A DNA stretch of 64,000 nucleotides from Bacteroidota bacterium (GCA_016213435.1 JACRAL010000093.1:13670-77669), one strand, 5' to 3'. Shown: positions 2,999-64,000, numbered from the stretch's first letter. Numbers and translations: made by a program. Notes: generated by a model from the sequence alone, not told the origin.

Positions 2999-4534
2999 TT
3001 AGGGATTTAGGGCAGCCGGTTTCGCCTTTTCCCTCACCACCTCCGCAAAAGTTTTATTTTGAATTTTGCTTTCCACCCAACTCAGAAAATCGAACTCCTC
3101 CATTGCAGCTTTCTCCATCGGATATTTTCTAAGTTTCAGCAAGTTTGTTTTTAATTCCTGAAGAGCAGCGCTGCGTTTTTTTTTGCTGATCGCCTTGCCC
3201 ATGATCTGACGCAGGCAATGCATAAATGCCTGTTCCATTTTAAAAAACCGATGACGTGTGGAAAGGAAATGCAGGGCGCTGCGTTTCAATGAATCTAACC
3301 ATTCTTCATCCTTATGCAACTCGTAGTGGATGAGCAGAGAGAGAATATGTGACAATGCTTGCGTATCCTTCCGTAGTTCGCTGGCGGGCTGATCAAGGAT
3401 TTTTCTGAGCCAAAGTAATGCTTCGTTATATCTGCCTGCTCCAAAGAGCATATAGGCGATATTATAATAGAGGTTTTTTTTTGTAATGGCAGTAGCTTCT
3501 TTCAGCAGGTCTTCATTTTCTTCTATCGCTTTTAATGTCGAGAATATTTTTTCAAAATCCCCCATACGCATGAGCACGTTTAATTCATTTATATAGGAAG
3601 ATATCCAGAAGGTGGCTTTGACCTCAGGGGAAGTAATGGGATAAGAGCGTATTTTCTGCAATACTTCCTGCATCTCTCCATACTTATTGCGGTGCGTGGG
3701 TACAATATCTTCTAAAAAGATACCTAATATATTTAACGCGAAAAGATATCTTTTTTCCGGATCTCTCAATTGATGTAAATGAGTTTCTATAAAACTACAT
3801 TGTTCTTTTGCTGTTTTGTATCCTTGAGTGAAATCACGTTTAAAGAAATAGTAAAGAGATCGTATTTCATAGTAATATGTTTTTGCTTCTGCGCAGGATG
3901 CCTGTTGGGGATTGCGCAAAAGAGGATGCCGCATCAGTTTTGCAGCAAGCACTTGTTCCTCTTTTGTACGCATGGATTCCCCTTCCTGAATCTGTTGTAT
4001 TATCTTATGGTGTATGGTTCGATAATCCTTAATGTTGCTTAGTTTTTGCTGTACGGCTCCCATTTCTTCGTTCAGATGAGGTATTTTTAACAGATCCATG
4101 GATGTACAGGGAATTCTTTCCATGGTCAATATTTCGATCAGCAATTCCCAGTGCTCATGATGATATGCACTAAGTTTGGCCTTCTTTAACAGAAGAAGCG
4201 CCTGCGCAGTAAGCCCTTTGCGTAAAAGAATTTCGGCTTTGTTGAGTTGGCTTCGCAGGTTTATATCCGTACTGCTGTGGTAGTTTTCCAAACTCCGGAG
4301 GATATTATTGTAAAGACGGCCATTGGCGACAGAAAGCCGCTTCAAAAACTTTTGTCCATGGCAGACGCTGCGTATAGCATCCTCATTATACCTGTCTTGT
4401 TTTTCTATCGCGTCATATAATTTCAGATAGCTTTTATCTCCGCCTTTTAAAGAGGAAAACATTTTGAAATACTTCTTTTCTGCCATAGCGAGCGAATGGA
4501 TCAACTCGAAAAGCGCAGTTCCTGTCTTTTTCAT
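2999..4534 (-). CDS. Hypothetical all-helical (TPR-like) cytoplasmic protein, paralog A of 59181..60737
   Basis: 511-aa ORF with no signal peptide. About 65-70 percent identical over the first 150 aa to the ORF at 59181..60737. No catalytic motif recognised. Confidence 0.6.
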   Translation of the reverse strand: MKKTGTALFELIHSLAMAEKKYFKMFSSLKGGDKSYLKLYDAIEKQDRYNEDAIRSVCHGQKFLKRLSVANGRLYNNILRSLENYHSSTDINLRSQLNKAEILLRKGLTAQALLLLKKAKLSAYHHEHWELLIEILTMERIPCTSMDLLKIPHLNEEMGAVQQKLSNIKDYRTIHHKIIQQIQEGESMRTKEEQVLAAKLMRHPLLRNPQQASCAEAKTYYYEIRSLYYFFKRDFTQGYKTAKEQCSFIETHLHQLRDPEKRYLFALNILGIFLEDIVPTHRNKYGEMQEVLQKIRSYPITSPEVKATFWISSYINELNVLMRMGDFEKIFSTLKAIEENEDLLKEATAITKKNLYYNIAYMLFGAGRYNEALLWLRKILDQPASELRKDTQALSHILSLLIHYELHKDEEWLDSLKRSALHFLSTRHRFFKMEQAFMHCLRQIMGKAISKKKRSAALQELKTNLLKLRKYPMEKAAMEEFDFLSWVESKIQNKTFAEVVREKAKPAALNP

Positions 4535-4615
4535 AACTGTGATAATTATGGATCGGAAAGGTATGCATAATTCTGCTTATTCGTAGCAGAAAAGAAGATC
4601 ATGGTGGATAAGATT

Positions 4616-4682
4616 CAAAATCATATTGGTGCAATAGTGCGAAACGTTATTTTGTATCCATCACTTCTTTGACCGAACTTTG
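4616..4682. promoter_or_regulatory. Conserved intergenic motif pair (AAAATCATATTGGT ... TTTGACCGAACTTT) shared with 60826..60890
   Basis: Two motifs with the same 38-39 bp spacing appear in both paralogous divergent intergenic regions. Confidence 0.3.
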
Positions 4683-4700
4683 GTATATAAAGAAAACAGC

Positions 4701-4760
4701 CACCCCTTCCCCTAAAGGGCGAGGACAAAAACAATAGCCCCCTTTAGGGCGGGGGGAAAA
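4701..4760. repeat. Two GC-rich palindromes (CCCCTTCCCCTAAAGGG... / CCCCCTTTAGGGCGGGGGG) inserted in the intergenic region
   Basis: About 60 bp present here and absent from the otherwise collinear paralogous intergenic region at 60890..60911. Confidence 0.5.
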
Positions 4761-4773
4761 CAACAACAACACT

Positions 4774-4944
4774 ATGATATCACTCGGAATTGAATACTCT
4801 CCTCCGCCCACCAAAAAGGAAATCCGCGAATGGAAAAAATGGAGAAAGGAGATGAACAGGATAGAGGAAATGTACATGCCGAAAGCTACTCCCCACAATA
4901 AGAAGAACATTAAAAAGAAAGACAATAAAAAACCAGGAAAATGA
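4774..4944 (+). CDS. Small basic protein (56 aa), paralog of 60912..61103
   Basis: Hand translation gives MISLGIEYSPPPTKKEIREWKKWRKEMNRIEEMYMPKATPHNKKNIKKKDNKKPGK. The N-terminal 30 aa match MISLGLELPSPPPSAKEIREWHKWRKEMN of the other copy. Its TGA stop overlaps the ATG at 4941 (ATGA). It is absent from the ORF track only because it is under 60 aa. Confidence 0.55.
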   Translation: MISLGIEYSPPPTKKEIREWKKWRKEMNRIEEMYMPKATPHNKKNIKKKDNKKPGK

Positions 4945-5378
4945 AAAAACTTTTAGCGCTTATCGCCACCATCATCTTATTTGCCATCGTTCTTTCTTCT
5001 TGCAAAAGTCATGAACTTTGTCCTGCTTATGGAAAAACGGATATGAAAATAATAACAGCGGGAAATACCCCATTTTCCACTGAAAACACATCAACTCAAT
5101 GTGTAAGCTCATTAACTCCGGGTGCAAGCGCATTAACTCCGGGTGCGAGACCTTCAACTCCGGGTGCAAGCGCATTAACTCCGAATGCGAGACCTTTAAC
5201 TCCGGGTGCAAGCGCATCAACTCCGAATGCGAGACCTTTAACTCCGGGTGCAAGCTCATCAACTCCGGGTGCAAGCGCATTAACTCCATGTGAAAACTCA
5301 TCAACTCCAGGTGCAAGCTCATCAACTCAATCTATAGTTAAAAGAAAGAATTCATCATTTACCATTCATAATTTATAA
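4941..5378 (+). CDS. Lipoprotein with tandem heptapeptide (LTPGASA/LTPNARP) repeats
   Basis: Signal peptide plus lipobox (VLSSC). The coding sequence contains ten or more 21-bp repeats. Confidence 0.6.
   Translation: MKKLLALIATIILFAIVLSSCKSHELCPAYGKTDMKIITAGNTPFSTENTSTQCVSSLTPGASALTPGARPSTPGASALTPNARPLTPGASASTPNARPLTPGASSSTPGASALTPCENSSTPGASSSTQSIVKRKNSSFTIHNL
5108..5330. repeat. 21-bp tandem repeat (TTAACTCCGGGTGCAAGCGCA-like), about 10 units, inside the lipoprotein CDS
   Basis: Direct reading of the sequence; the units stay in frame. Confidence 0.8.
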
Positions 5379-5390
5379 TTTACTGCACCA

Positions 5391-6647
5391 ATGACAACAA
5401 TCAAAAGAATTTACCATGTAGCTGACTCCACGATGCTGGATTCAGCCGATGTGTTTCATGCACTTTATGTAGTGGATGAAGCCGATTATTCGGGTTTCAG
5501 CAGCGCCATCTTTACGGCAAACTTTAAAACAGATTTTCTTGCCGAAATTAATGCTGCCCGAGCCGTAGTGCAAGATATGATCAACATAGATGAGATGGCA
5601 GAAGAAACCGCTTTGGTAACCGCAAAAACTAAAGAATGTGCCGACTATTTTATTTCCGCAAAATTTTTTATTGAAAAAGCATTCCCCGATAATCAGGCGG
5701 TGTGGAACCAGTTTGGATACAATGATTACCGAAAAGCAAGCCGATCGCAAAGCAAGATGATCGGCTTTATGGAAATGTTTTTTATAGTTGCAACAAAATA
5801 TACTGCCCAGCTGAACGCTCAGGGCTTCACCGCTGCAAAAATAGCGCAGATACAAACGCTGGAAACCCAGCTCCGCACCGAGCAATTAGATCAGGAAACA
5901 TTTAAAAAGAACCGCCCTCTGTGGACTCAGGACAGGATCATTATTTTAAACAAACCCTATCAAAGGATGGTAGATATTCACAATGCTTCCAAAACCATTT
6001 ATAAAAATAATTTCGCAAAGCTGCATCAATATGCCTTGCCGCACAGTGGAACAACTCCTCCGCCTGCACCAGCCGTTATAAGCATGGTTACCGACCAAAC
6101 TACTTTGCAGGCAATCATCCTCAAAATAGCCGGCAATGCTTTGGCAACAGACACCGAGCAATTCAAAATTGCTTTTGGCGATGGCAACGAAGGGATTGGC
6201 ACTTTAGCAAACGGAATCCTTGCCATCTATCCGCACGATTACAACATACCCGGTGCCGATGCATCGGGCATCTATACAATAACCATCACTCCCGTTACCG
6301 CAGGCGCTTTATCCCTCATGGGTGTTTTGCAGTTTGATAACTGCAAGTTTAAAGATGACGTTACTATCCCCGCTGCGGTGCAGGCATCGGGTATTCAGAT
6401 GCCAAATAATCATATAACAAATTTCAATATGCAGCCTGCTTCTTACAGCAAGCTCACTTCGCTTGTTCTTTTTAATAATGATATGACTGCGAGTAACGTA
6501 AACTTTAATCTGATCGGCTTAGATGACAGCGGCTTGCCTAATGGCTTTGCCAACTTTGGCGGTGGAACAAATGCGGCACCCACAGGAGCAGGAATTACAG
6601 CAAAGAATAATTTAATTGCAAAGGGATGGACGGTAATAACGAATTAA
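5391..6647 (+). CDS. Hypothetical protein
   Basis: 418-aa ORF with no signal peptide and no recognised motif. Confidence 0.45.
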   Translation: MTTIKRIYHVADSTMLDSADVFHALYVVDEADYSGFSSAIFTANFKTDFLAEINAARAVVQDMINIDEMAEETALVTAKTKECADYFISAKFFIEKAFPDNQAVWNQFGYNDYRKASRSQSKMIGFMEMFFIVATKYTAQLNAQGFTAAKIAQIQTLETQLRTEQLDQETFKKNRPLWTQDRIIILNKPYQRMVDIHNASKTIYKNNFAKLHQYALPHSGTTPPPAPAVISMVTDQTTLQAIILKIAGNALATDTEQFKIAFGDGNEGIGTLANGILAIYPHDYNIPGADASGIYTITITPVTAGALSLMGVLQFDNCKFKDDVTIPAAVQASGIQMPNNHITNFNMQPASYSKLTSLVLFNNDMTASNVNFNLIGLDDSGLPNGFANFGGGTNAAPTGAGITAKNNLIAKGWTVITN

Positions 6648-6869: not shown

Positions 6870-9800
6870 ATGAAGAATAAGATCTTTACCCTTGCTCTAC
6901 GCTCAATCTCCTCCCCAATGGACAACCGTAGGTTGCGACCGAAGGTCAGTTGTGGTGGGACTTTACTTCTCCTCCTCTGCCAATTTTGCTTTTGGCAACA
7001 GGGGTATGCTGTAGTAACTACTTTAACATTGGCAAATCCAACAACTGCCGTAGGTGCTGCTGATATTTGTGCAGGCACACTAAAGGTTCCAATTCATGCT
7101 TTCAAAATAACTGCATCGGGTGGTGCAGGCAGTGGGGTGCTGACTAACTTTCAATTTACAACTACCGGAACTTATGTTGCCTCTGAAATCGTTAATTTTA
7201 AAATTTGGAAAAATACTGTAGATGATTTAAGCACGGCTACAGAACTATTAGCAGCGTATGCAGGAACTCCACCATCAACTAACAATACCCCTCTTGGTCC
7301 CGGCTTGCAAGTATACTCAGGAACGGGAGGACCGTCAACATCATTCCGGACATTTAGTTATGGAATTCCGAATACTGTAACTTGGTTTTTTTGGATAACA
7401 ATGGATGTTGCTGCCACCGTTACTGATGGTAGTACTATAGGCGTTATTGCTTCTGTTAATACAGACATGACTACTGCTAAAATCCAAGCCGGCAGTGCAG
7501 CTGCCAGCGGAACACAAACATTGCATACTTTTCCCGTCATCACGGTTCAACCTGCTGATCAGTCAATATGTACCAGCAGTCTTAGCGTTCCAGCTGCATT
7601 TAATGTTACCGCTACAGCAGGCAGCGGATTAACGTATCAATGGTATGAAAATGCGGTACTCATTACCAATGGAGGAATTTACAGCGGAGCCACTTCAGCA
7701 GCATTAACCCTTACCGGAGTAAATGCAGGCATGAACGGCTATCTGTATACCTGTGTAACATCCACCGCATTTTGCTCAACCACCTCCTCTGCGGCAAGTC
7801 TTAATGTTCCGGCACTTGCTCCTACCCGTGCTGTTACGCAAAATAATATTTCGGGTGTTTTGCAGGGAACAAACTACAATGAAATAATTGGCATCGAGAT
7901 CGATATAAACTGCGCCACCACAACTGCAACTTCTTTTATTTTAAATACAACCGGAAGCACTGCCCCGGGCACCGACATCAGCGCGGCAAGGCTTCTGTAC
8001 ACGGGCACTTCATCCATATTCACAACCTCAGCCCCTCAATTCGGCATACAGGCATCTCCCAGCGGAACATTCACCATTACGGGAACACAAAGCCTATCTG
8101 TTGGCACCAATTATTTTTGGCTGAGCTATGATGTTCCTCTCACCGCAGTGCTTGGCGATGTGCTGGACGGGCAATGCACTTCGATAACCATTGGAGGAAC
8201 CGGTACGGCACCAAGCCCTACTACCGTAGCAGGAAGCAGGCCCATAGTTGCCGTGAACAGCTGGCTTTGGGCACAGGGAGCGGTAGGTGATGGTACCGCT
8301 TTCGAAATACAAGATATATTGGACTGCGCCATTGATGCTTCAAACAGTGTATACACTGTGGGGTATTTTAAACTCAATGTTACTTTTGGTTCAACTCCCA
8401 CACTGTCAGCTCCTGTTGGCTATTCCCCGGTTATTGTAAAATACGATGCCGGGGGCAATGCTCTCTGGGCGAGAATGATAGGAAATGCTGCCGGTGGTTA
8501 TGTGGGGTCGTATGATGGTGTGGCTGTCTCGCCTGCGGGTTGGGTGTATGCAGTAGGAAATGTGAGTGCAGGCACCACCTTTGGTCCTTTTACAGCCACC
8601 ATGGGTGGTATGGTCGTTATGGTTTACGATGCTAATGGAAATGAGGCGTATATGTTTCCTCAAAACACAAATACCGGCACTTGCAGTGGCAGTAATTTGG
8701 CGGTGGATGCTTCTGATAATGTGTATGTAACAGGATATTATATTGGAGCCATCACCATAGGTGGATTATCTATTACTAGCAGTAATGGGGGTACACAAAC
8801 CGATGTCTTTGTTGTTAAATACGATGGAGTAACGGGCAATCCGGTCTGGCTGAAAAGCATAGGCGGAGGCGGAGGCGGAGCTCATGGTGTTTGGTTCAAT
8901 ACCTATGTGAACGATGCTATGAAAAGCATAGCTGTTGATGCTTCAGGTAATGTTTTTGTAGGGGGATATTCTGCTGCTAGCAGTCCTCTTGATGTTTGGT
9001 CGGGAGAACCCCGTATCACTGCGGGTGCGTTTACCACTACCTCGGTTCAACAACTTGATTTCTTTCTCGTTAAATACAATTCTTCCGGCACAGAACAATG
9101 GATGAAACAACCTACATCGGGTACCGGTGGCGGAAACGATATGAATAAGATGGCCGGTTTGGCTCTCGATGCTTCGGGCAATGTATATATAACAGGGTCC
9201 TTTGCATACAATCTCAGAATTGGAACAACCACCCTCACTAATACCGGTGCTGGCGGTAATCCGACATTTGTTTTGGATGTGTTTGTTGCCAAATATAATA
9301 ATGCAGGCACTTTTCAATGGGCAGTGAGTGGAGGAGGCTCTGGAGAGGAAAACGGTTACAACATCGCCATAAACCCGCTTAACAATCACCTGTTTGTGAT
9401 TGGGGATATAAATTTGAGCGGTGGCAATGCAACTTTCACCAGGATGGCAGCGGGTGGGAGTGGAGGAGGCGGAAATACTGTTTTCTCAACGATTACCCTA
9501 CCCGGTGGCATGGGAGATTTGTTTATTGTGGAATACACTGATGCCGGAGTTGCAGTTTGCGGGAGTTCATTAGTAGGTGGTGGAGAAGATGCAACGGGCG
9601 TTGCCGCAGATAACTTTGGCTTTGCGTATATAGCAGGAGATTTTGAGGGTGTCGATCCATTTATAGTTGGCTCAACCAGTTTACCATTTACTATGGGTGC
9701 TGGTCAGGAAAATGCCTATATCGCCCGATGGTCTTCTTGTGTTGCTGTTCCCCTCGGTGTGGAGTGGATGTCGTTCACGGCATCATGCAATGAGGGCAAA

Positions 9801-10310
9801 GCAAAACTGAACTGGAGCACCGCTTCGGAAACTAATAATGATTACTTTGCCATAGAGCGCAGTGCAGATGGAGTAAACTATGAGACAATAGGCACAGTAA
9901 AAGGTGCAGGCAACAGCAGCATGACAACAGATTATACATTCACGGATGCTGATCCTGTGGATGGAATTTCTTATTACCGCATCAGGCAAACGGATTATAA
10001 CGGAAACAGCACTGTTTCAAAAATTGTGAGTTACAATAAGAATGTCTGCGGTGTATCTGTTTATCCAAATCCATTTGATAAAACTTTGTATGTGAGCAGC
10101 CCAACTACTGTGAATGCATTATTCAGGATTGTAAATGTATTGGGGCAGGAGGTGTATTCTCAGCATATCTTCCTACCCGGAGATGGCACAAGCCTTGCCA
10201 TTGACTTACCTTTATTAGCCAGCGGAATGTATATAGTGCGGATCAGTGATACAGATAACTTAAATCTGTTGCTGAACACGAAAGTGGTGAGAGCGGGAGT
10301 GGCTGAGTAG
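6870..10310 (+). CDS. Large secreted protein with SBBP-type beta-propeller repeats and a type IX secretion C-terminal sorting domain
   Basis: 1146 aa. Repeated NVYVTGYY/NVFVGGYS/NVYITGSF motifs. The C-terminus (YPNPFDKTLYV...GMYIVRISD...KVV) matches the T9SS C-terminal domain. The true start may be at 6918. Confidence 0.7.
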   Translation: MKNKIFTLALRSISSPMDNRRLRPKVSCGGTLLLLLCQFCFWQQGYAVVTTLTLANPTTAVGAADICAGTLKVPIHAFKITASGGAGSGVLTNFQFTTTGTYVASEIVNFKIWKNTVDDLSTATELLAAYAGTPPSTNNTPLGPGLQVYSGTGGPSTSFRTFSYGIPNTVTWFFWITMDVAATVTDGSTIGVIASVNTDMTTAKIQAGSAAASGTQTLHTFPVITVQPADQSICTSSLSVPAAFNVTATAGSGLTYQWYENAVLITNGGIYSGATSAALTLTGVNAGMNGYLYTCVTSTAFCSTTSSAASLNVPALAPTRAVTQNNISGVLQGTNYNEIIGIEIDINCATTTATSFILNTTGSTAPGTDISAARLLYTGTSSIFTTSAPQFGIQASPSGTFTITGTQSLSVGTNYFWLSYDVPLTAVLGDVLDGQCTSITIGGTGTAPSPTTVAGSRPIVAVNSWLWAQGAVGDGTAFEIQDILDCAIDASNSVYTVGYFKLNVTFGSTPTLSAPVGYSPVIVKYDAGGNALWARMIGNAAGGYVGSYDGVAVSPAGWVYAVGNVSAGTTFGPFTATMGGMVVMVYDANGNEAYMFPQNTNTGTCSGSNLAVDASDNVYVTGYYIGAITIGGLSITSSNGGTQTDVFVVKYDGVTGNPVWLKSIGGGGGGAHGVWFNTYVNDAMKSIAVDASGNVFVGGYSAASSPLDVWSGEPRITAGAFTTTSVQQLDFFLVKYNSSGTEQWMKQPTSGTGGGNDMNKMAGLALDASGNVYITGSFAYNLRIGTTTLTNTGAGGNPTFVLDVFVAKYNNAGTFQWAVSGGGSGEENGYNIAINPLNNHLFVIGDINLSGGNATFTRMAAGGSGGGGNTVFSTITLPGGMGDLFIVEYTDAGVAVCGSSLVGGGEDATGVAADNFGFAYIAGDFEGVDPFIVGSTSLPFTMGAGQENAYIARWSSCVAVPLGVEWMSFTASCNEGKAKLNWSTASETNNDYFAIERSADGVNYETIGTVKGAGNSSMTTDYTFTDADPVDGISYYRIRQTDYNGNSTVSKIVSYNKNVCGVSVYPNPFDKTLYVSSPTTVNALFRIVNVLGQEVYSQHIFLPGDGTSLAIDLPLLASGMYIVRISDTDNLNLLLNTKVVRAGVAE

Positions 10311-59180: not shown

Positions 59181-60737
59181 TTATACTTTTTTTAAAGCCC
59201 CTCGAGAGATTCTAAATAGTTGTTTTGACTTCTCCTTCACCACATCCTCAAAAGTTTTATGCTGAATTTTGCTTTCCACCCAGCTTAGAAAGTCAAACTC
59301 CTCCATCGCTACTTTCTCCAATGGGTCTTTCATCAGTTTCAATAAGGTGGTTTTTAATACATGGAAAGCAAGAATGCGTTCATGTTTGTCAATAGACACT
59401 TTCATAACCTGATGCAGGCAATTCATCAAAGCTTTTTCCAATTTAAAAAGTCGGTTTTGTTTGGAAAGGAGATATAGAGTGCTTCGTTGTAATGATTTCA
59501 GCAGTTGAGCATCCTTATGTATTTCGTAGTGGATGAGCAGGAAAAGAATACGTGCCGCTGCGTACACATCATGCCGGAATGCGCCTTCGGGCTGTTCAAC
59601 TATTTTTTGGGTCCAGAATAATGCTTTGTTATAGCTGCCTGCACCAAAAAGCATATAGGCGATATTATAATAAAGAATAATTGGACTAACAGCAGGATCT
59701 TTGTTCAGAAAATCATTATTTGCTTCTATCGCTTTTATAACCGGAAATACTTTTTCAAAATCCCCCGTCCGCATGAACGCGTTTAATTCATTTATATAGG
59801 AATTTGACCAGTACGAGATTTTGAGTGAGTGTGAGGCAATGGGATAGGCACGTATTTTATTCAGCAATATCTGCATTTCTTCATATAAATTATGATTGAC
59901 AGATAAAAGATATCCTATGAAAATCACTGACATGTTCAGTCCGAAGAGATATCTCTTTCCATAGTCTCTTAATTGATGCGAGTGTGTTTCTATAAATTTA
60001 CATTGCTCTTTTGAGAGTTCATATCCTCGAATAAAGTCCCGCTTAAAAAAATAATAAAGAGACCACACTTCATAATAAGTTGCTTTTGCCTCTGCGCAGG
60101 ATGCCTGCTTTAAATTGCGTAAAAGAGGATGCCGCATAAGCTTTGTAATAAACACTTGTTCCTTTTTTGTGCGCATGGGTTCCGCTTCATGGATTTTCCG
60201 TGTTATCTTATAGTGTAGCGTTCGGTAGTCATCAATGTTGTTTAGCTTTTTGAGTACAGTTTTTATTTCTTCATTCAGATGAGACATTTTTAACAGCTCC
60301 TGTGCCGAATAAGGAATTCTTTCCATAATTAAAATTTCCATCAATAGTTCCCAGTGTTCATGCTGATATGCAATGCTCTTGGCTGCCCTTAATAGCTTCA
60401 GTGCCTGGTCAGTAAGCCCTTTGTCTAAAAGAATCCCGGCTTTGCTGATCTGGCTGCGCAGGTTTATATCCGTGCTGTTGTGGTAATTTTCCAAGCTGCG
60501 GAGAATACTATTATGAAGGCGCCTTTTAGCAACAGAAAGATGCCGCAGGAACTTTTGCCCGCGGCAGGTGTTGCGGATAGCGCCCTCATCATACCTGTTT
60601 TGTTTTTCTATAACATCATATAATACCAGATAGTTCTTGTCTCCACCTTTCAGCGAAGACAACATTTTGAAATACTTCTTTTCTGCCATGCTGAGGGAAT
60701 GGATCAAGTCAAAAATTGAAGTGCTTGTTTTTTTCAT
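59181..60737 (-). CDS. Hypothetical all-helical protein, paralog B of 2999..4534
   Basis: 518 aa, collinear with paralog A. Confidence 0.6.
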   Translation of the reverse strand: MKKTSTSIFDLIHSLSMAEKKYFKMLSSLKGGDKNYLVLYDVIEKQNRYDEGAIRNTCRGQKFLRHLSVAKRRLHNSILRSLENYHNSTDINLRSQISKAGILLDKGLTDQALKLLRAAKSIAYQHEHWELLMEILIMERIPYSAQELLKMSHLNEEIKTVLKKLNNIDDYRTLHYKITRKIHEAEPMRTKKEQVFITKLMRHPLLRNLKQASCAEAKATYYEVWSLYYFFKRDFIRGYELSKEQCKFIETHSHQLRDYGKRYLFGLNMSVIFIGYLLSVNHNLYEEMQILLNKIRAYPIASHSLKISYWSNSYINELNAFMRTGDFEKVFPVIKAIEANNDFLNKDPAVSPIILYYNIAYMLFGAGSYNKALFWTQKIVEQPEGAFRHDVYAAARILFLLIHYEIHKDAQLLKSLQRSTLYLLSKQNRLFKLEKALMNCLHQVMKVSIDKHERILAFHVLKTTLLKLMKDPLEKVAMEEFDFLSWVESKIQHKTFEDVVKEKSKQLFRISRGALKKV

Positions 60738-60825
60738 AATAGTCAGTTATCATGAATATAAAGTGGAAAGGTAGATATAATTCATCTTATAAATTAAAGA
60801 AATAGTGTTTTTTCTGATAAAATTA

Positions 60826-60890
60826 AAAATCATATTGGTTAGATACAACAAAAAGTTATTGTTGCGGCATTGTTTTTTTGACTGACCTTT
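60826..60890. promoter_or_regulatory. Conserved intergenic motif pair (AAAAATCATATTGGT ... TTTGACTGACCTTT)
   Basis: See 4616..4682. Confidence 0.3.
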
Positions 60891-60911: not shown

Positions 60912-61103
60912 ATGATATCACTCGGACTTGAGCTTCCCTCTCCTCCACCCTCAGCAAAAGAAATCCGCGAATGGCACAAATGGAGAAAGGAGATGAACCT
61001 GTTGATGGAAGAAACCGCCTCGCGCAAAAAAAAAGCCCACCCCAAAAGGGTAAAAAACACAAAACAAAAATCAATAAATAAAACCAATCATGAAAACATT
61101 TAA
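60912..61103 (+). CDS. Small basic protein (63 aa), paralog of 4774..4944
   Basis: MISLGLELPSPPPSAKEIREWHKWRKEMN... Its 3' end overlaps the start of 61090 by 14 nt. Confidence 0.55.
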   Translation: MISLGLELPSPPPSAKEIREWHKWRKEMNLLMEETASRKKKAHPKRVKNTKQKSINKTNHENI

Positions 61104-62541
61104 AACAATACTCATCGGATGTATTATTGCTTTTGCAAACACAACTGCAATTTATGCTAATAATCTGCAGATAGGTATCCCTACTGTTGCAACCGCAACA
61201 ACCTTAACTTTTACTATCCAGTGGGATAATAGCTGGAGAGTATCTTCCGGCACCAATAATTATGATGCTGTTTGGATCTTTGCAAAATACCAGAATTGCA
61301 GCGGCACTAACGACTGGAACCATGTTACATTGGCTGCCGGCTCCAGCGTTTCGGGCGGGGTTTTACAGGTAGTGAATACATCGGATGGACTCTATAAAGG
61401 CATTTTTGTTCAACGAAGTGCAGATGGAATAGGAAATATTTCCAGCTCTACTGTTACCCTTCAAATGAGTTTCGCTGATGCAAGTTATAACTATCAGGTT
61501 TTTGCTATGGAAATGGTATATGTACCCGTTGGAAGTTTTTATGTAGGAGACAATACTTCGAATAATAGATGTTATTTGAGTCCAGCCGGAACTCCATTTA
61601 ATGTTACATCGGATGGCGCATTGGCACTCGGAGCAAATTTTTATGCTAATTCTACAAATTATGCTATAGCTTTAGCTTATCCTCTTGGATATGATGCATT
61701 TTATTCCATGAAATATGAAATTTCACAAGAGCAGTATGCTAAATTTCTCAGCACATTGACGTATGCTCAACAAACAGCCCGTATGGATATTCCGCCTACT
61801 TCTGCTCCCGGCACTTATGCTTTGGGAACAGGAGTCAATAGAAATGGAATTTGCATTAAAACATCCGGGGTTTTTAATACAGTGCCTGCCATAATGGGGA
61901 ATGATCTAACACCGGGTACTATTGACAATACCAACGATGGACAGAATATTGCCTGCAACTGGTTATCCTGGGAGGATTTGCTTGCCTATCTCGATTGGTC
62001 TGCCTTACGGCCCATGACAGAGTTTGAATTTGAGAAAATATGCAGAGGTCCCAACACAGCAGTTGCGAATGAATATCCATGGGCAACAACTACAATTACG
62101 CAAGCACCTTCATCTGCACTTACTAACCCACAATTAAGCACAGAGGTATCTACTGCTACGGGAGATGGCTTAACAAATTATGGAAATGGAACAGCCGGTA
62201 ATTATGGTCCCGGTCCAAATAGGGTTGGACAAGCAGCCAGAGCGGCAACTACACAACAGGGAGCCGGTGCTGCCTGGTATGGGGCATTGGATATGGCAGG
62301 AAATGTATGGGAACATTGTATTCTAGTGAATGCCACTATTACCAATGCAGCAGGCGATGGAGCAATTAGTGCAGCAGGTGCTCAAAATCAGGGCTGGCCA
62401 ACTTATACTAGTGCGACCAGAAGAGGTAGTGCTTATAGTCAAAGTTTTACCTATTGTAAAACAAGTGATAGGACATTCTATAACACTCCTACTAATACTC
62501 GAAATAGTGATGGTGGAGGCAGGGGTGTTCGTATGCCATAA
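61090..62541 (+). CDS. FGE-sulfatase (SUMF1) domain protein, GldJ/GldK/PorK-like
   Basis: Signal peptide. Motifs FYSMKYEISQEQYAKF, LRPMTEFEFEKICRG and RRGSAYS correspond to the FGE consensus FxMDKYEVTNxQYxxF / RLPTEAEWEYAxRGG / RGGSW. Confidence 0.5.
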   Translation: MKTFKTILIGCIIAFANTTAIYANNLQIGIPTVATATTLTFTIQWDNSWRVSSGTNNYDAVWIFAKYQNCSGTNDWNHVTLAAGSSVSGGVLQVVNTSDGLYKGIFVQRSADGIGNISSSTVTLQMSFADASYNYQVFAMEMVYVPVGSFYVGDNTSNNRCYLSPAGTPFNVTSDGALALGANFYANSTNYAIALAYPLGYDAFYSMKYEISQEQYAKFLSTLTYAQQTARMDIPPTSAPGTYALGTGVNRNGICIKTSGVFNTVPAIMGNDLTPGTIDNTNDGQNIACNWLSWEDLLAYLDWSALRPMTEFEFEKICRGPNTAVANEYPWATTTITQAPSSALTNPQLSTEVSTATGDGLTNYGNGTAGNYGPGPNRVGQAARAATTQQGAGAAWYGALDMAGNVWEHCILVNATITNAAGDGAISAAGAQNQGWPTYTSATRRGSAYSQSFTYCKTSDRTFYNTPTNTRNSDGGGRGVRMP

Positions 62542-62591: not shown

Positions 62592-64000
62592 ATGAGAAAA
62601 ATCTATTTCCACCTAATTTTTATTACCTCTTTAATGTGTTATACATTATCGGGGTTTGCTCAATATTTAGGCGGTAATTATGGTGGGTTCTCTAATAACA
62701 ATAATTTTCCGGTTACCCGTACCTATGCCACATGGAATCCTTTAGACCAAGGAGCAGGAATTACTTTATCCGGTGGGAATCTGACAACTGCTAATACTGC
62801 AGCCGGTATGGTCAGGGCAACAATAGGAGTATTAAGCGGCAAATGGTATTGGGAAATTACCAGAAACAATCCGGCCGGAGTTAGCGGGATTGCTAATGCC
62901 TCTGCAGCGTTAACTACTTACCCGGGTGCTAATGTTAATGGGTGGGAATATGATGCTACAGGGTTGAAATATACGAATGCTGCCGGTGTTGCTTATGGAG
63001 CAACTTATACCACAGGCGATGTTATAGGCGTTGCTCTTGATATGGATGCGGGAACCATTACCTATTATAAAAATGGCGTTTCTCAGGGTATTGCCTATTC
63101 CGGATTAACAGGAATCATATACCCTGCATCGGGTGCAGGGGCTGGCGGTGCTTCTCCAAACGACCGTAAAATAACAGCCAACTTTGGAGCAACTGCTTTT
63201 GCTTATGCTGTTCCGGGCGGTTATAATTCCGGGTTATATACTGATTCTTATTTCAGTCCTTGCTCCGCTCCTGCAGGAATCAACTTTTATCTGGGGGGCA
63301 GCGGGGGAGGATTTTTGAGTGGAGAAAGGACACAAACAGTATGTACGCCTCCTGTGGGGATTAGTATTTGGAATGGCGGTATTGGTGATGGGTTTGCTAC
63401 CGCCAATAATTTTCCGGCAACTCCTGTGTATACCACATGGAACCCTTCAGACAAAGGAGCAGGAATTACATTAAGTGGTGGAGACTTAGGTGCTTTAAAT
63501 ACAGCAGCAGGTTTGGTTCGTTCTACAGTAGGTGTATCCAGCGGTAAGTGGTATTGGGAGGTAACAAAAACAGATGCTCCCGCAGGTGGTTCCATTGGTT
63601 TCGCAAAGTCAACTGCAGGAATAAATAATTATCCGGGTGCTGATGCAAATGGTTGGATGTATTCTGGAAGTAACGGCTACAAATATACCGGAGGTGTCGG
63701 AGTGGCGTATGGTGCTGCATACGTCCAAAATGATGTAATCGGGATTGCACTTGATATGGATGCAGGCTCAGTTACTTTCTATGTAAATGGTGTATCTCAA
63801 GGAGTTGCTTATAGTGGTTTAACAGGAACCATTTTTGCCTCTGTTGGTGCCGGTGCTGCCGGTAAATCTTGGACAACCAATTTTGGTGCTACAGCATTTG
63901 CTTATGCTGTTCCTTCCGGATTTAATTCGGGTTTATATTCAACCGATTATTTAAGCACATGTACTCCTCCTCCTGGTTTGAGTATATTCTTAGGCGGTCA
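62592..64000 (+). CDS. Secreted protein with at least two tandem ~215-aa SPRY/B30.2-like domains (partial, runs off the window)
   Basis: Signal peptide. Each repeat contains SGKWYWE(I/V)T and GV/IALDMDAG(T/S)(I/V)T(Y/F)Y(K/V)NGVSQG, which match the SPRY signature. The ORF is still open at the window end. Confidence 0.5.
   Translation, partial: MRKIYFHLIFITSLMCYTLSGFAQYLGGNYGGFSNNNNFPVTRTYATWNPLDQGAGITLSGGNLTTANTAAGMVRATIGVLSGKWYWEITRNNPAGVSGIANASAALTTYPGANVNGWEYDATGLKYTNAAGVAYGATYTTGDVIGVALDMDAGTITYYKNGVSQGIAYSGLTGIIYPASGAGAGGASPNDRKITANFGATAFAYAVPGGYNSGLYTDSYFSPCSAPAGINFYLGGSGGGFLSGERTQTVCTPPVGISIWNGGIGDGFATANNFPATPVYTTWNPSDKGAGITLSGGDLGALNTAAGLVRSTVGVSSGKWYWEVTKTDAPAGGSIGFAKSTAGINNYPGADANGWMYSGSNGYKYTGGVGVAYGAAYVQNDVIGIALDMDAGSVTFYVNGVSQGVAYSGLTGTIFASVGAGAAGKSWTTNFGATAFAYAVPSGFNSGLYSTDYLSTCTPPPGLSIFLGG

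Follow-up and report, generated by a model that had tools for sequence, protein, structure and literature searches.

Gene layout at the two ends of the window

The 64,000-nucleotide stretch of DNA analysed here, referred to as the window (Bacteroidota bacterium, GCA_016213435.1, JACRAL010000093.1:13670-77669), carries the same three-gene arrangement at both ends, designated copy A and copy B. A large gene on the minus strand encodes a cytoplasmic, all-helical protein related to the regulator RusR (BT2802), a small open reading frame (ORF) diverges from it, and the stop codon of the small ORF overlaps the start of a gene for an exported protein, termed the cargo. An earlier preliminary description, made from the sequence alone, had proposed this layout, and all of its ORFs were recovered in an ORF map where that description had placed them. 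The genes and gene segments concerned, with protein lengths in amino acids (aa), are as follows:

2999-4534, minus strand: copy A large gene (HY840_07160), 511 aa, cytoplasmic all-helical TPR protein of the RusR (BT2802) superfamily
4774-4944, plus strand: copy A small ORF (HY840_07165), 56 aa, from the ORF map
4774-4857, plus strand: copy A small-ORF head, 28 codons (MISLGIEYSPPPTKKEIREWKKWRKEMN), 83% nucleotide identity with copy B
4858-4944, plus strand: copy A small-ORF tail, Lys-rich and not conserved; its stop overlaps the next ATG (ATGA, 4941-4944)
4941-5378, plus strand: copy A first cargo gene, lipoprotein of 145 aa, lipobox LSSC read from the sequence
59181-60737, minus strand: copy B large gene (HY840_07375), 518 aa, matching NF058569 (E = 4.4e-42)
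60912-61103, plus strand: copy B small ORF (HY840_07380), 63 aa, with its head from 60912 to about 60998
61090-62541, plus strand: copy B first cargo gene, secreted FGE-sulfatase-domain protein of 483 aa, Pfam PF03781 (E = 7.8e-12)

The small and large start codons are separated by 239 bp in copy A and 174 bp in copy B, in keeping with the 170 to 240 bp first reported, and the overlap of the small-ORF stop with the cargo start, also reported earlier, measures 4 nt in copy A and 14 nt in copy B. The identification of the copy B cargo as an FGE-domain protein is likewise borne out, by the Pfam match and by a signal peptide that can be read from the sequence.

A conserved cassette amplified in one genome

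The large proteins of copies A and B are 64% identical across 505 aa without a gap, which rules out chance resemblance. In blastn comparisons between the window ends, similarity is confined to two blocks: 3019-4651 (74%), comprising the large gene and its proximal intergenic DNA, and 4773-4857 (83%), which corresponds exactly to codons 1-28 of the small ORF. The cargo proteins and the small-ORF tails are unrelated between the two copies. From these blocks, and from the unrelated tails and cargo, it follows that the conserved unit is a cassette made up of the regulator gene, a bidirectional promoter region with its two motifs, and the first 28 codons of the small ORF. All nucleotide-level comparisons concern copies A and B, which are two of at least 11 loci. 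For the large genes they give a nucleotide identity of 74%, with a synonymous divergence (dS) of 0.86, a nonsynonymous divergence (dN) of 0.22 and a dN/dS of 0.26; the corresponding values of the small-ORF head are a dS of 0.40 and a dN/dS of 0.32. The duplication is thus an old one.

The two-copy duplication originally envisaged gives way to a larger family. At least 11 large paralogues, all with HY840_ locus tags, are found in a single metagenome-assembled genome (MAG; 'Bacteroidetes bacterium'), and the ten others are 61-72% identical to copy A. Protein searches place five of the large paralogues on the same 118-kb contig, and the nearest match to the large protein beyond the MAG is 35% identical. 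A profile built from the two small ORFs of the window was run with HMMER against 1.84 billion representative proteins and recovered six family members, all of them in this MAG. Five of the six have a locus tag adjacent to that of a large paralogue (small/large pairs 07165/07160, 07380/07375, 11210/11215, 07515/07510 and 04250/04245). The two modules of the window belong to this family, which numbers at least 11 copies and has been amplified in one lineage.

The sixth small-ORF paralogue, HY840_00790 (P0070), lies outside the window and has no large paralogue with an adjacent tag among the matches. Either a twelfth copy of the regulator has been missed or has degraded there, or the small ORF is able to exist alone.

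Two simpler origins for the resemblance were rejected. A recent segmental duplication is at odds with the large-gene dS of 0.86, the 74% nucleotide identity and the unrelated cargo; the concern raised at the outset, that a recent event might have copied a small ORF having no conservation of its own, is likewise answered by the six diverged copies of that ORF. A mobile element was rejected as well, as there are no transposases or terminal repeats and the edges of similarity fall inside genes.

Membership of the large protein in the RusR superfamily

The NCBIfam model NF058569 (BT_2802_fam, BT2802/RusR) matches both large proteins from end to end (E = 1e-40 and 4e-42), with residues 1-499 of the protein aligned to positions 1-501 of the 502 in the model. 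The scores, 140 and 144.7 bits, are far under the curated cutoff of 550 bits. Because of this score, and because no ribose genes lie nearby, the large protein is assigned on sequence grounds to the RusR superfamily but outside the curated BT2802 family. It had been stated that neither protein family was recognizable; for the large protein this is superseded by the NCBIfam match.

Pfam returned sub-threshold TPR matches only, and no ATPase domain was found in Pfam or NCBIfam. An AlphaFold2 model built from a 54-sequence alignment is all-helical, with a pLDDT of 89.7 and a pTM of 0.83, in agreement with the cytoplasmic, all-helical, TPR-like protein first described. The model confidently predicts a small N-terminal domain of four to five helices followed by a long TPR-type solenoid. 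In fold comparisons the best matches are to Rap, AimR and PlcR, and the scores of generic TPR proteins, LGN for example, equal that of Rap. No helix-turn-helix (HTH), including one of the XRE type, was detected in the protein by sequence methods or by Foldseek; the N-terminal domain is possibly a DNA-binding domain resembling sigma region 4 or LuxR.

RusR itself sits divergently upstream of the rus locus and is not itself induced (bioRxiv 10.1101/574913). A deletion mutant does not grow on ribose and keeps about 10% of rus induction (bioRxiv 10.1101/574913), and a later regulon study treats RusR as the regulator of rus (PMC12596196). No mechanistic work on RusR was found in the literature. The suggestion that the large protein is regulator-like and has a divergent target thus gains from its homology to RusR, whose role as activator of a divergent locus has genetic support, and by analogy the large protein is probably a ligand-sensing transcription regulator that acts on the shared promoter region.

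Distant relatives and their exported partners

Distant relatives provided 69 informative loci; in 49 of them the gene closest upstream is divergent, usually across a gap of 110-390 bp. A crude heuristic detects a signal-peptide-like N-terminus in 32 of these 49 divergent neighbours. When redundancy is removed, 37 divergent partners are left, of which 19 carry a sorting domain of the type IX secretion system (T9SS; 16 of type A and three of type B, CHU_C) and 13 are secreted M1 peptidases. The remaining partners include Omp28, a nuclease, an M13 peptidase, FG-GAP proteins and esterases, and also one cytoplasmic hydrolase; in the closest outgroup the partner, 141 bp away, is an esterase with a T9SS tail. 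On the evidence of the divergent neighbours and the T9SS partners, the ancient unit is a RusR-like gene together with a divergent exported-protein gene, and this unit is widespread in Bacteroidota. Ribose utilization is one specialized case of the pairing.

These partners bear on a different view of the large protein, namely that it is a cytoplasmic TPR scaffold or chaperone for neighbouring exported or T9SS proteins, or for their mRNAs, and not a transcription factor. The strong association with T9SS cargo genes would be accounted for in this way, as would the failure to detect an HTH by sequence or by Foldseek. However, the loss of RusR cuts rus transcript induction about 10-fold, which is a transcript-level phenotype (bioRxiv 10.1101/574913); a divergent layout with a gap of 110-390 bp is typical of a regulator and its target; and the partners (M1 peptidases, esterases, nucleases, GG-leader peptides, a cytoplasmic hydrolase) are too diverse for a client-specific role. 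A chaperone function is accordingly considered very improbable.

Loci whose partners are secreted M1 peptidases of about 800 aa form a subgroup (L022, L023, L026, L030, L035, L037, L041, L045, L048, L060, L075, L080, L083 and L088) in which the intergenic region of about 180 bp has conserved blocks of its own: GGAATTTCAAA near the regulator, then AGACG and TAGGAATnCAA. These blocks, a possible repeated operator to judge by their sequence, are unrelated in sequence to the motifs of the window. At four other loci (L024, L051, L066 and L094) the RusR-like gene is divergent from an ORF of about 100 aa that begins with the pattern MKK(L/K)xLxxLxxxSFVTS...ET(I/V)xGG, which resembles the GG-motif leaders of natural-product and bacteriocin precursors of Bacteroidota; from this resemblance, some members of the family may control peptide natural-product loci.

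The small ORF

The small proteins of copies A and B are 57% identical (E = 5e-16), with conservation limited to residues 1-28, and their DNA similarity stops at codon 28. Among the six paralogues the mean pairwise amino acid identity is 65% for the heads and 15% for the tails, and the value for the heads matches that of the large paralogues (64-66%). Nine residues are invariant in all six proteins (M1, I2, G5, E7, E16, R18, W20, K22 and W23), so that the conserved N-terminus noted from the two window copies extends to the whole set; the replacements that do occur are conservative (E/Q/A, K/R/H, I/L, M/I), with the ATG and the frame kept. The PPP of the head is replaced by PPI and THP in two copies. 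Through both head and tail of copies A and B, the small-ORF frame is the sole stop-free one, the other frames having one to three stops per segment. All six tails end Lys-rich, which is expected where each tail enters the A-rich start region of the next gene; in the window the tails have an A content of 54% and lie on the A-rich stretch ahead of the next gene's ATG. The conservative replacements and the dN/dS of 0.32 would fit purifying selection on the peptide, but the dN/dS comes from two DNA copies, in which codons 16-28 show no synonymous change. Taking together the six copies, the contrast between head and tail identity, the dN/dS, the sole open frame and the Lys-rich tails, the small ORF is, with high likelihood, a genuine gene that is translated.

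Outside the MAG the small ORF was found neither by the exhaustive HMMER search of 1.84 billion proteins nor by a word-indexed protein search, nor in a DNA-level scan of a metagenome collection, nor in 96 distant-relative loci (by tblastn, and by hmmsearch --max on six-frame translations), nor at the closest outgroup locus. No recurring leader ORF of any sequence occupies the same position in the distant-relative loci. The small ORF is confined to this MAG among the collections searched, and the conservation beyond this genome that had been held to matter for its significance was found in neither proteins, metagenome DNA nor the 97 relative loci.

The small proteins have a net charge of +8 to +15, no hydrophobic stretch and no export signal, as expected from the earlier remark that a signal peptide is lacking, and residues from about 14 to 31 form a predicted, strongly amphipathic helix (hydrophobic moment 0.41-0.67). 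Somewhat tentatively, at a confidence clearly below even, the small ORF is taken to act mainly in cis, as a regulatory leader. In the main rival, which appears unlikely, the small protein would work in trans inside the cell, as a partner or ligand for the TPR solenoid, and the two would form an analogue of the RRNPP systems that has no need of export. When the operon is on, the small protein would bind the regulator by way of its amphipathic, Trp-rich helix and feed back on regulator activity. shp genes are adjacent and divergent to rgg genes, and the small gene has the same relation to the large one; the helix itself, the TPR fold matches of the large protein, the joint amplification of regulator and small ORF at five or more loci, and the equal rate at which head and regulator evolve (65% and 66% identity) are all compatible with such a partnership. 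On the other hand, nine residues invariant in all six copies would imply cross-talk among 11 regulators and not paralogue-specific signals. No co-divergence between the head and its cognate regulator is apparent (r = -0.15 for 10 pairs, a comparison of low power), the protein lacks an export signal and is conserved in its N-terminal part, the distant relatives function without any small ORF, and the equal scores of LGN and other generic TPR proteins detract from the match to Rap. Action in cis is favoured over paralogue-specific action in trans because the nine residues are common to all copies and have not diversified, and because only the head is conserved and every tail reaches the A-rich start region of the next gene.

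In its boldest form the trans alternative would have each of the 11 or more RusR-like regulators gated by a small protein from its own target operon, as the first export-independent, Gram-negative counterpart of RRNPP, and this we regard as quite unlikely. If true, the cell would possess a battery of self-feedback switches that choose which set of exported or T9SS proteins is deployed, and ligand binding in the TPR solenoid would be indicated as a working mode of the RusR family.

Codons 16-28 (4819-4857 and 60960-60998) have no synonymous differences between copies A and B, while the neighbouring large genes have a dS of 0.86, which suggests an overlapping constraint at the nucleotide level. 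These codons hold a purine run, GGAGAAAGGAG, that is able to pair with the upstream tract CUCUCCUCC (codons 9-12) and that also resembles a Shine-Dalgarno sequence; such sequences are unusual in Bacteroidota. The pairing gives a predicted 9-bp stem in both copies, without covariation. An Rfam search of the leader gave no match at gathering or permissive thresholds, and the folding z-scores of -0.4 and +1.2 are no better than those of shuffled sequence; a structured RNA or riboswitch in the leader was rejected on these grounds.

A broader form of this idea is that the conserved 85 nt are a nucleic-acid element belonging to the duplicated promoter and 5' leader (an operator lying past the start site, or an element of mRNA stability or translation) or a relic of the first gene in an ancestral operon, and that the reading frame is incidental. 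In its favour are the lack of synonymous differences across codons 16-28, the sharp end of DNA similarity at codon 28, where a cassette boundary would lie, and the pairing of the conserved pyrimidine tract with GGAGAAAGGAG in both copies. T-poor tails in which stops are rare also make an open frame weak evidence for a protein, and in the PGAP annotation six loci have the small ORF while the large paralogues number at least 11. Yet six proteins show conservative replacements with ATG and frame retained, dN/dS is 0.32, the ORF frame is the sole open one through head and tail in both copies, folding is like that of shuffled sequence with no covariation in the stem, and Rfam offers no match. Overall, a purely nucleic-acid role for the 85 nt is judged quite unlikely.

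The shared intergenic region

The intergenic region contains the following features:

4617-4630: motif 1 of copy A (AAAATCATATTGGT), exact in copies A and B, 83 bp from the large ATG
4668-4681: motif 2 of copy A (TTTGACCGAACTTT), containing a candidate -7 box (GAACTTTG)
60826-60839: motif 1 of copy B (AAAATCATATTGGT), from the exact motif search
60877-60890: motif 2 of copy B (TTTGACTGACCTTT), 21 bp ahead of the small ATG
4563-4570, minus strand: candidate Bacteroidetes-type -7 box (TACCTTTC) of the copy A large gene, from a consensus scan
4690-4760: insertion of about 70 bp specific to copy A (an alignment gap against copy B), with two GC-rich palindromes (CCCTAAAGGGCG and CCCTTTAGGGCG)

Motif 1, AAAATCATATTGGT, and motif 2, TTTGACYGAMCTTT, have exact matches at the two loci, and the rest of the window has none. 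Their spacing is identical in the two copies, at 51 bp from start to start; the shared motifs and their equal spacing agree with the preliminary description, and the gap between them is 37 bp, not the 38-39 bp given there. Motif 1 is a candidate operator or -33 region, and by analogy motifs 1 and 2 are candidate binding sites for the regulator. The consensus scan also finds the -7 box of the large gene in copy B, as a minus-strand match starting at 60773, and a conserved GGAAAGGTA block in the alignment of copies A and B supports this candidate. Candidate promoter boxes of the Bacteroidetes type can be placed by the scan on both strands in both copies. A scan for sigma70-type promoters found no enrichment over shuffled sequences, as expected for Bacteroidota.

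The palindromes of the copy A insertion form a strong hairpin between motif 2 and the small ATG (-27.6 kcal/mol, z -4.0). GC-rich palindromes of the form CCCT(A/T)(A/T)AGGG(C/G)G occur eight times in the window, against 0.8 expected, and are found at 279-292 and 2893-2904 as well. By sequence they look like intrinsic terminators on the minus strand, and they may be repetitive extragenic palindromic (REP)-like elements or insulators between divergent genes.

A proposed regulator with a translated leader

The favoured reading, held with a confidence a little short of even, is that a RusR-type TPR regulator drives the divergent operon and that a translated leader ORF, specific to this lineage, adds a second layer of control. 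The TPR solenoid of the large protein would serve as the sensor. By analogy with RusR, the regulator would bind the divergent promoter region of about 175-240 bp, with the motifs as candidate sites, and when bound would turn on the divergent operon and with it the lipoprotein, FGE-domain, SPRY-domain and possibly T9SS cargo. The small ORF is wedged between promoter and cargo, and its tail would be a locus-specific, A-rich leader that incidentally encodes lysines. Ribosomes on the small ORF would pass through the initiation region of the cargo and so couple or gate cargo translation, and the conserved nascent head (PPP, E16, R18, W20, K22, W23) may modulate their progress. DNA binding, activation of the operon, translation of the ORF and its action in cis are the parts of this scheme that we infer; the paralogy, the cassette boundaries, the confinement to one MAG within the collections searched, the RusR homology, the TPR fold and the link with exported genes, from which it starts, are established by the comparisons above.

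Several observations weigh against this scheme. The NF058569 score is far below the cutoff and ribose genes are absent, so that any function carried over from RusR is assigned by analogy. Two copies have supplied the motifs, which could be ordinary promoter boxes and no operators. In classical arrest peptides the conserved part lies close to the stall site, whereas the head of the small ORF precedes 27-57 variable residues, and its PPP is not invariant. The small ORF is annotated at six loci, compared with at least 11 large paralogues. The T-poor, A-rich tails seldom hold stops, the chance of an open tail being about 0.2 per copy, and termination at the cargo start is therefore partly an effect of composition. 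Finally, codons 16-28, in which synonymous changes are missing, hint at a nucleotide-level constraint that the leader model leaves unexplained.

Cargo genes and their neighbours

Three further genes lie downstream of the first cargo genes:

5391-6647, plus strand: copy A second cargo gene, 418 aa, no signal peptide, starting 12 bp past the lipoprotein gene
6870-10310, plus strand: beta-propeller-repeat protein of 1146 aa with a T9SS type A C-terminal sorting domain (TIGR04183 Por_Secre_tail, E = 8.5e-9)
62592-64000, plus strand: copy B second cargo gene, secreted protein with two SPRY domains (Pfam SPRY, E = 3e-37, two stretches), running past the window end

The copy A lipoprotein gene contains 10.9 copies of a 21-nt (7-aa) tandem repeat at 5101-5328, with a 42-nt super-period. 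The repeats encode Pro/Ser/Thr-rich units of the type (S/L)TPGA(S/R)(A/P), and the protein, which matches no Pfam family, is likely from its sequence to be an extended, possibly glycosylated surface linker. It had been described as a lipoprotein with heptad repeats; it is a lipoprotein, but its repeats are 7-residue tandem units and not coiled-coil heptads.

The 418-aa protein has two paralogues in the MAG, HY840_00505 (70% identity) and HY840_08940 (77% over half its length), neither of which is adjacent to a regulator paralogue; the 418-aa gene was accordingly rejected as a part of the cassette. The C-terminal 80 or so residues of this protein match many LRR/BspA-like and DUF4082-containing surface proteins. 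A 222-bp gap precedes the gene for the 1146-aa T9SS protein, and its co-transcription is uncertain. No ribokinase, SusC/D or permease genes lie near the window copies.

Comparison with known systems

The closest comparison is with RusR. The window proteins share with it full-length homology, a length of about 500 aa, a cytoplasmic location, a divergent position directly upstream of the presumed target locus, and a lack of similarity to classical regulators of polysaccharide utilization loci. They differ in scoring 140-145 bits against a cutoff of 550, as a distant branch of the superfamily; in having exported proteins as targets, with no ribokinase, SusC/D or permease genes close by; in their amplification to at least 11 copies in one genome; and in the small ORF between promoter and target, which is present at none of 97 relative loci (the rus locus of B. 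thetaiotaomicron is not among them). The regulator family is widespread in Bacteroidota, and RusR is the one member that has been studied. To this the present analysis adds a structural picture, a small N-terminal helical domain joined to a Rap/MalT-like TPR sensor, and the finding that most partners of the family are divergent genes for exported proteins, not ribose loci, with half of the non-redundant partners being T9SS cargo. Such partners suggest a general role for the RusR-like family in control of the secretome.

The preliminary description likened the module to regulatory pairs of the RRNPP or the anti-sigma type. Resemblance to RRNPP proteins (Rap, NprR, PlcR, PrgX, AimR, Rgg) lies in the TPR-type solenoid, with fold matches to Rap, AimR and PlcR, in the adjacent small gene, divergent as in Rgg/SHP, and in the multiplication of receptor and small-gene pairs in one genome. 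Membership nevertheless fails. RRNPP systems belong to Firmicutes or to phages of Firmicutes, whereas the host here is a member of the Bacteroidota; the small ORF carries no export signal and is conserved in its N-terminal 28 residues, not in a C-terminal mature peptide; and the invariant residues are common to all paralogues, with no XRE-type HTH detected. Nothing in the analysis supports an anti-sigma pair. Membership of the MalT/STAND class also fails, as the large protein has no NTPase (STAND) domain; it has no sequence similarity to MalT/LAL proteins, and its putative HTH is N-terminal where theirs is C-terminal.

Leader peptides of the TnaC, SpeFL, SecM and MgtL type offer the nearest parallel to the small ORF: a short ORF in the 5' leader, with a stop that overlaps the first structural gene, and a conserved peptide with invariant Trp, Arg and Pro that has no detectable trans-acting domain. 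In the window, by contrast, the conserved segment is N-terminal, with 27-57 variable residues after it, no structure of the attenuator or terminator kind was detected downstream of the small ORFs, and the leader is joined to a dedicated divergent regulator with which it has been amplified as a cassette. By its layout the module qualifies formally as a coupled leader ORF, in which a stalling or attenuation device is putative. A limited literature search found no comparable leader-ORF system in Bacteroidota. Translation initiation is unusual in this phylum, and the leader ORF, if functional, would be a rare documented case there of control by a leader peptide or small protein, as well as a tractable case of the de novo birth of a mini-gene and its co-amplification. 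It is important to emphasize that the module is a RusR-type divergent pair extended, in one lineage, by a mini-gene found nowhere else searched and amplified as a cassette; it amounts to a natural experiment in which a regulator has been amplified at least 11-fold along with a newly invented 28-codon leader.

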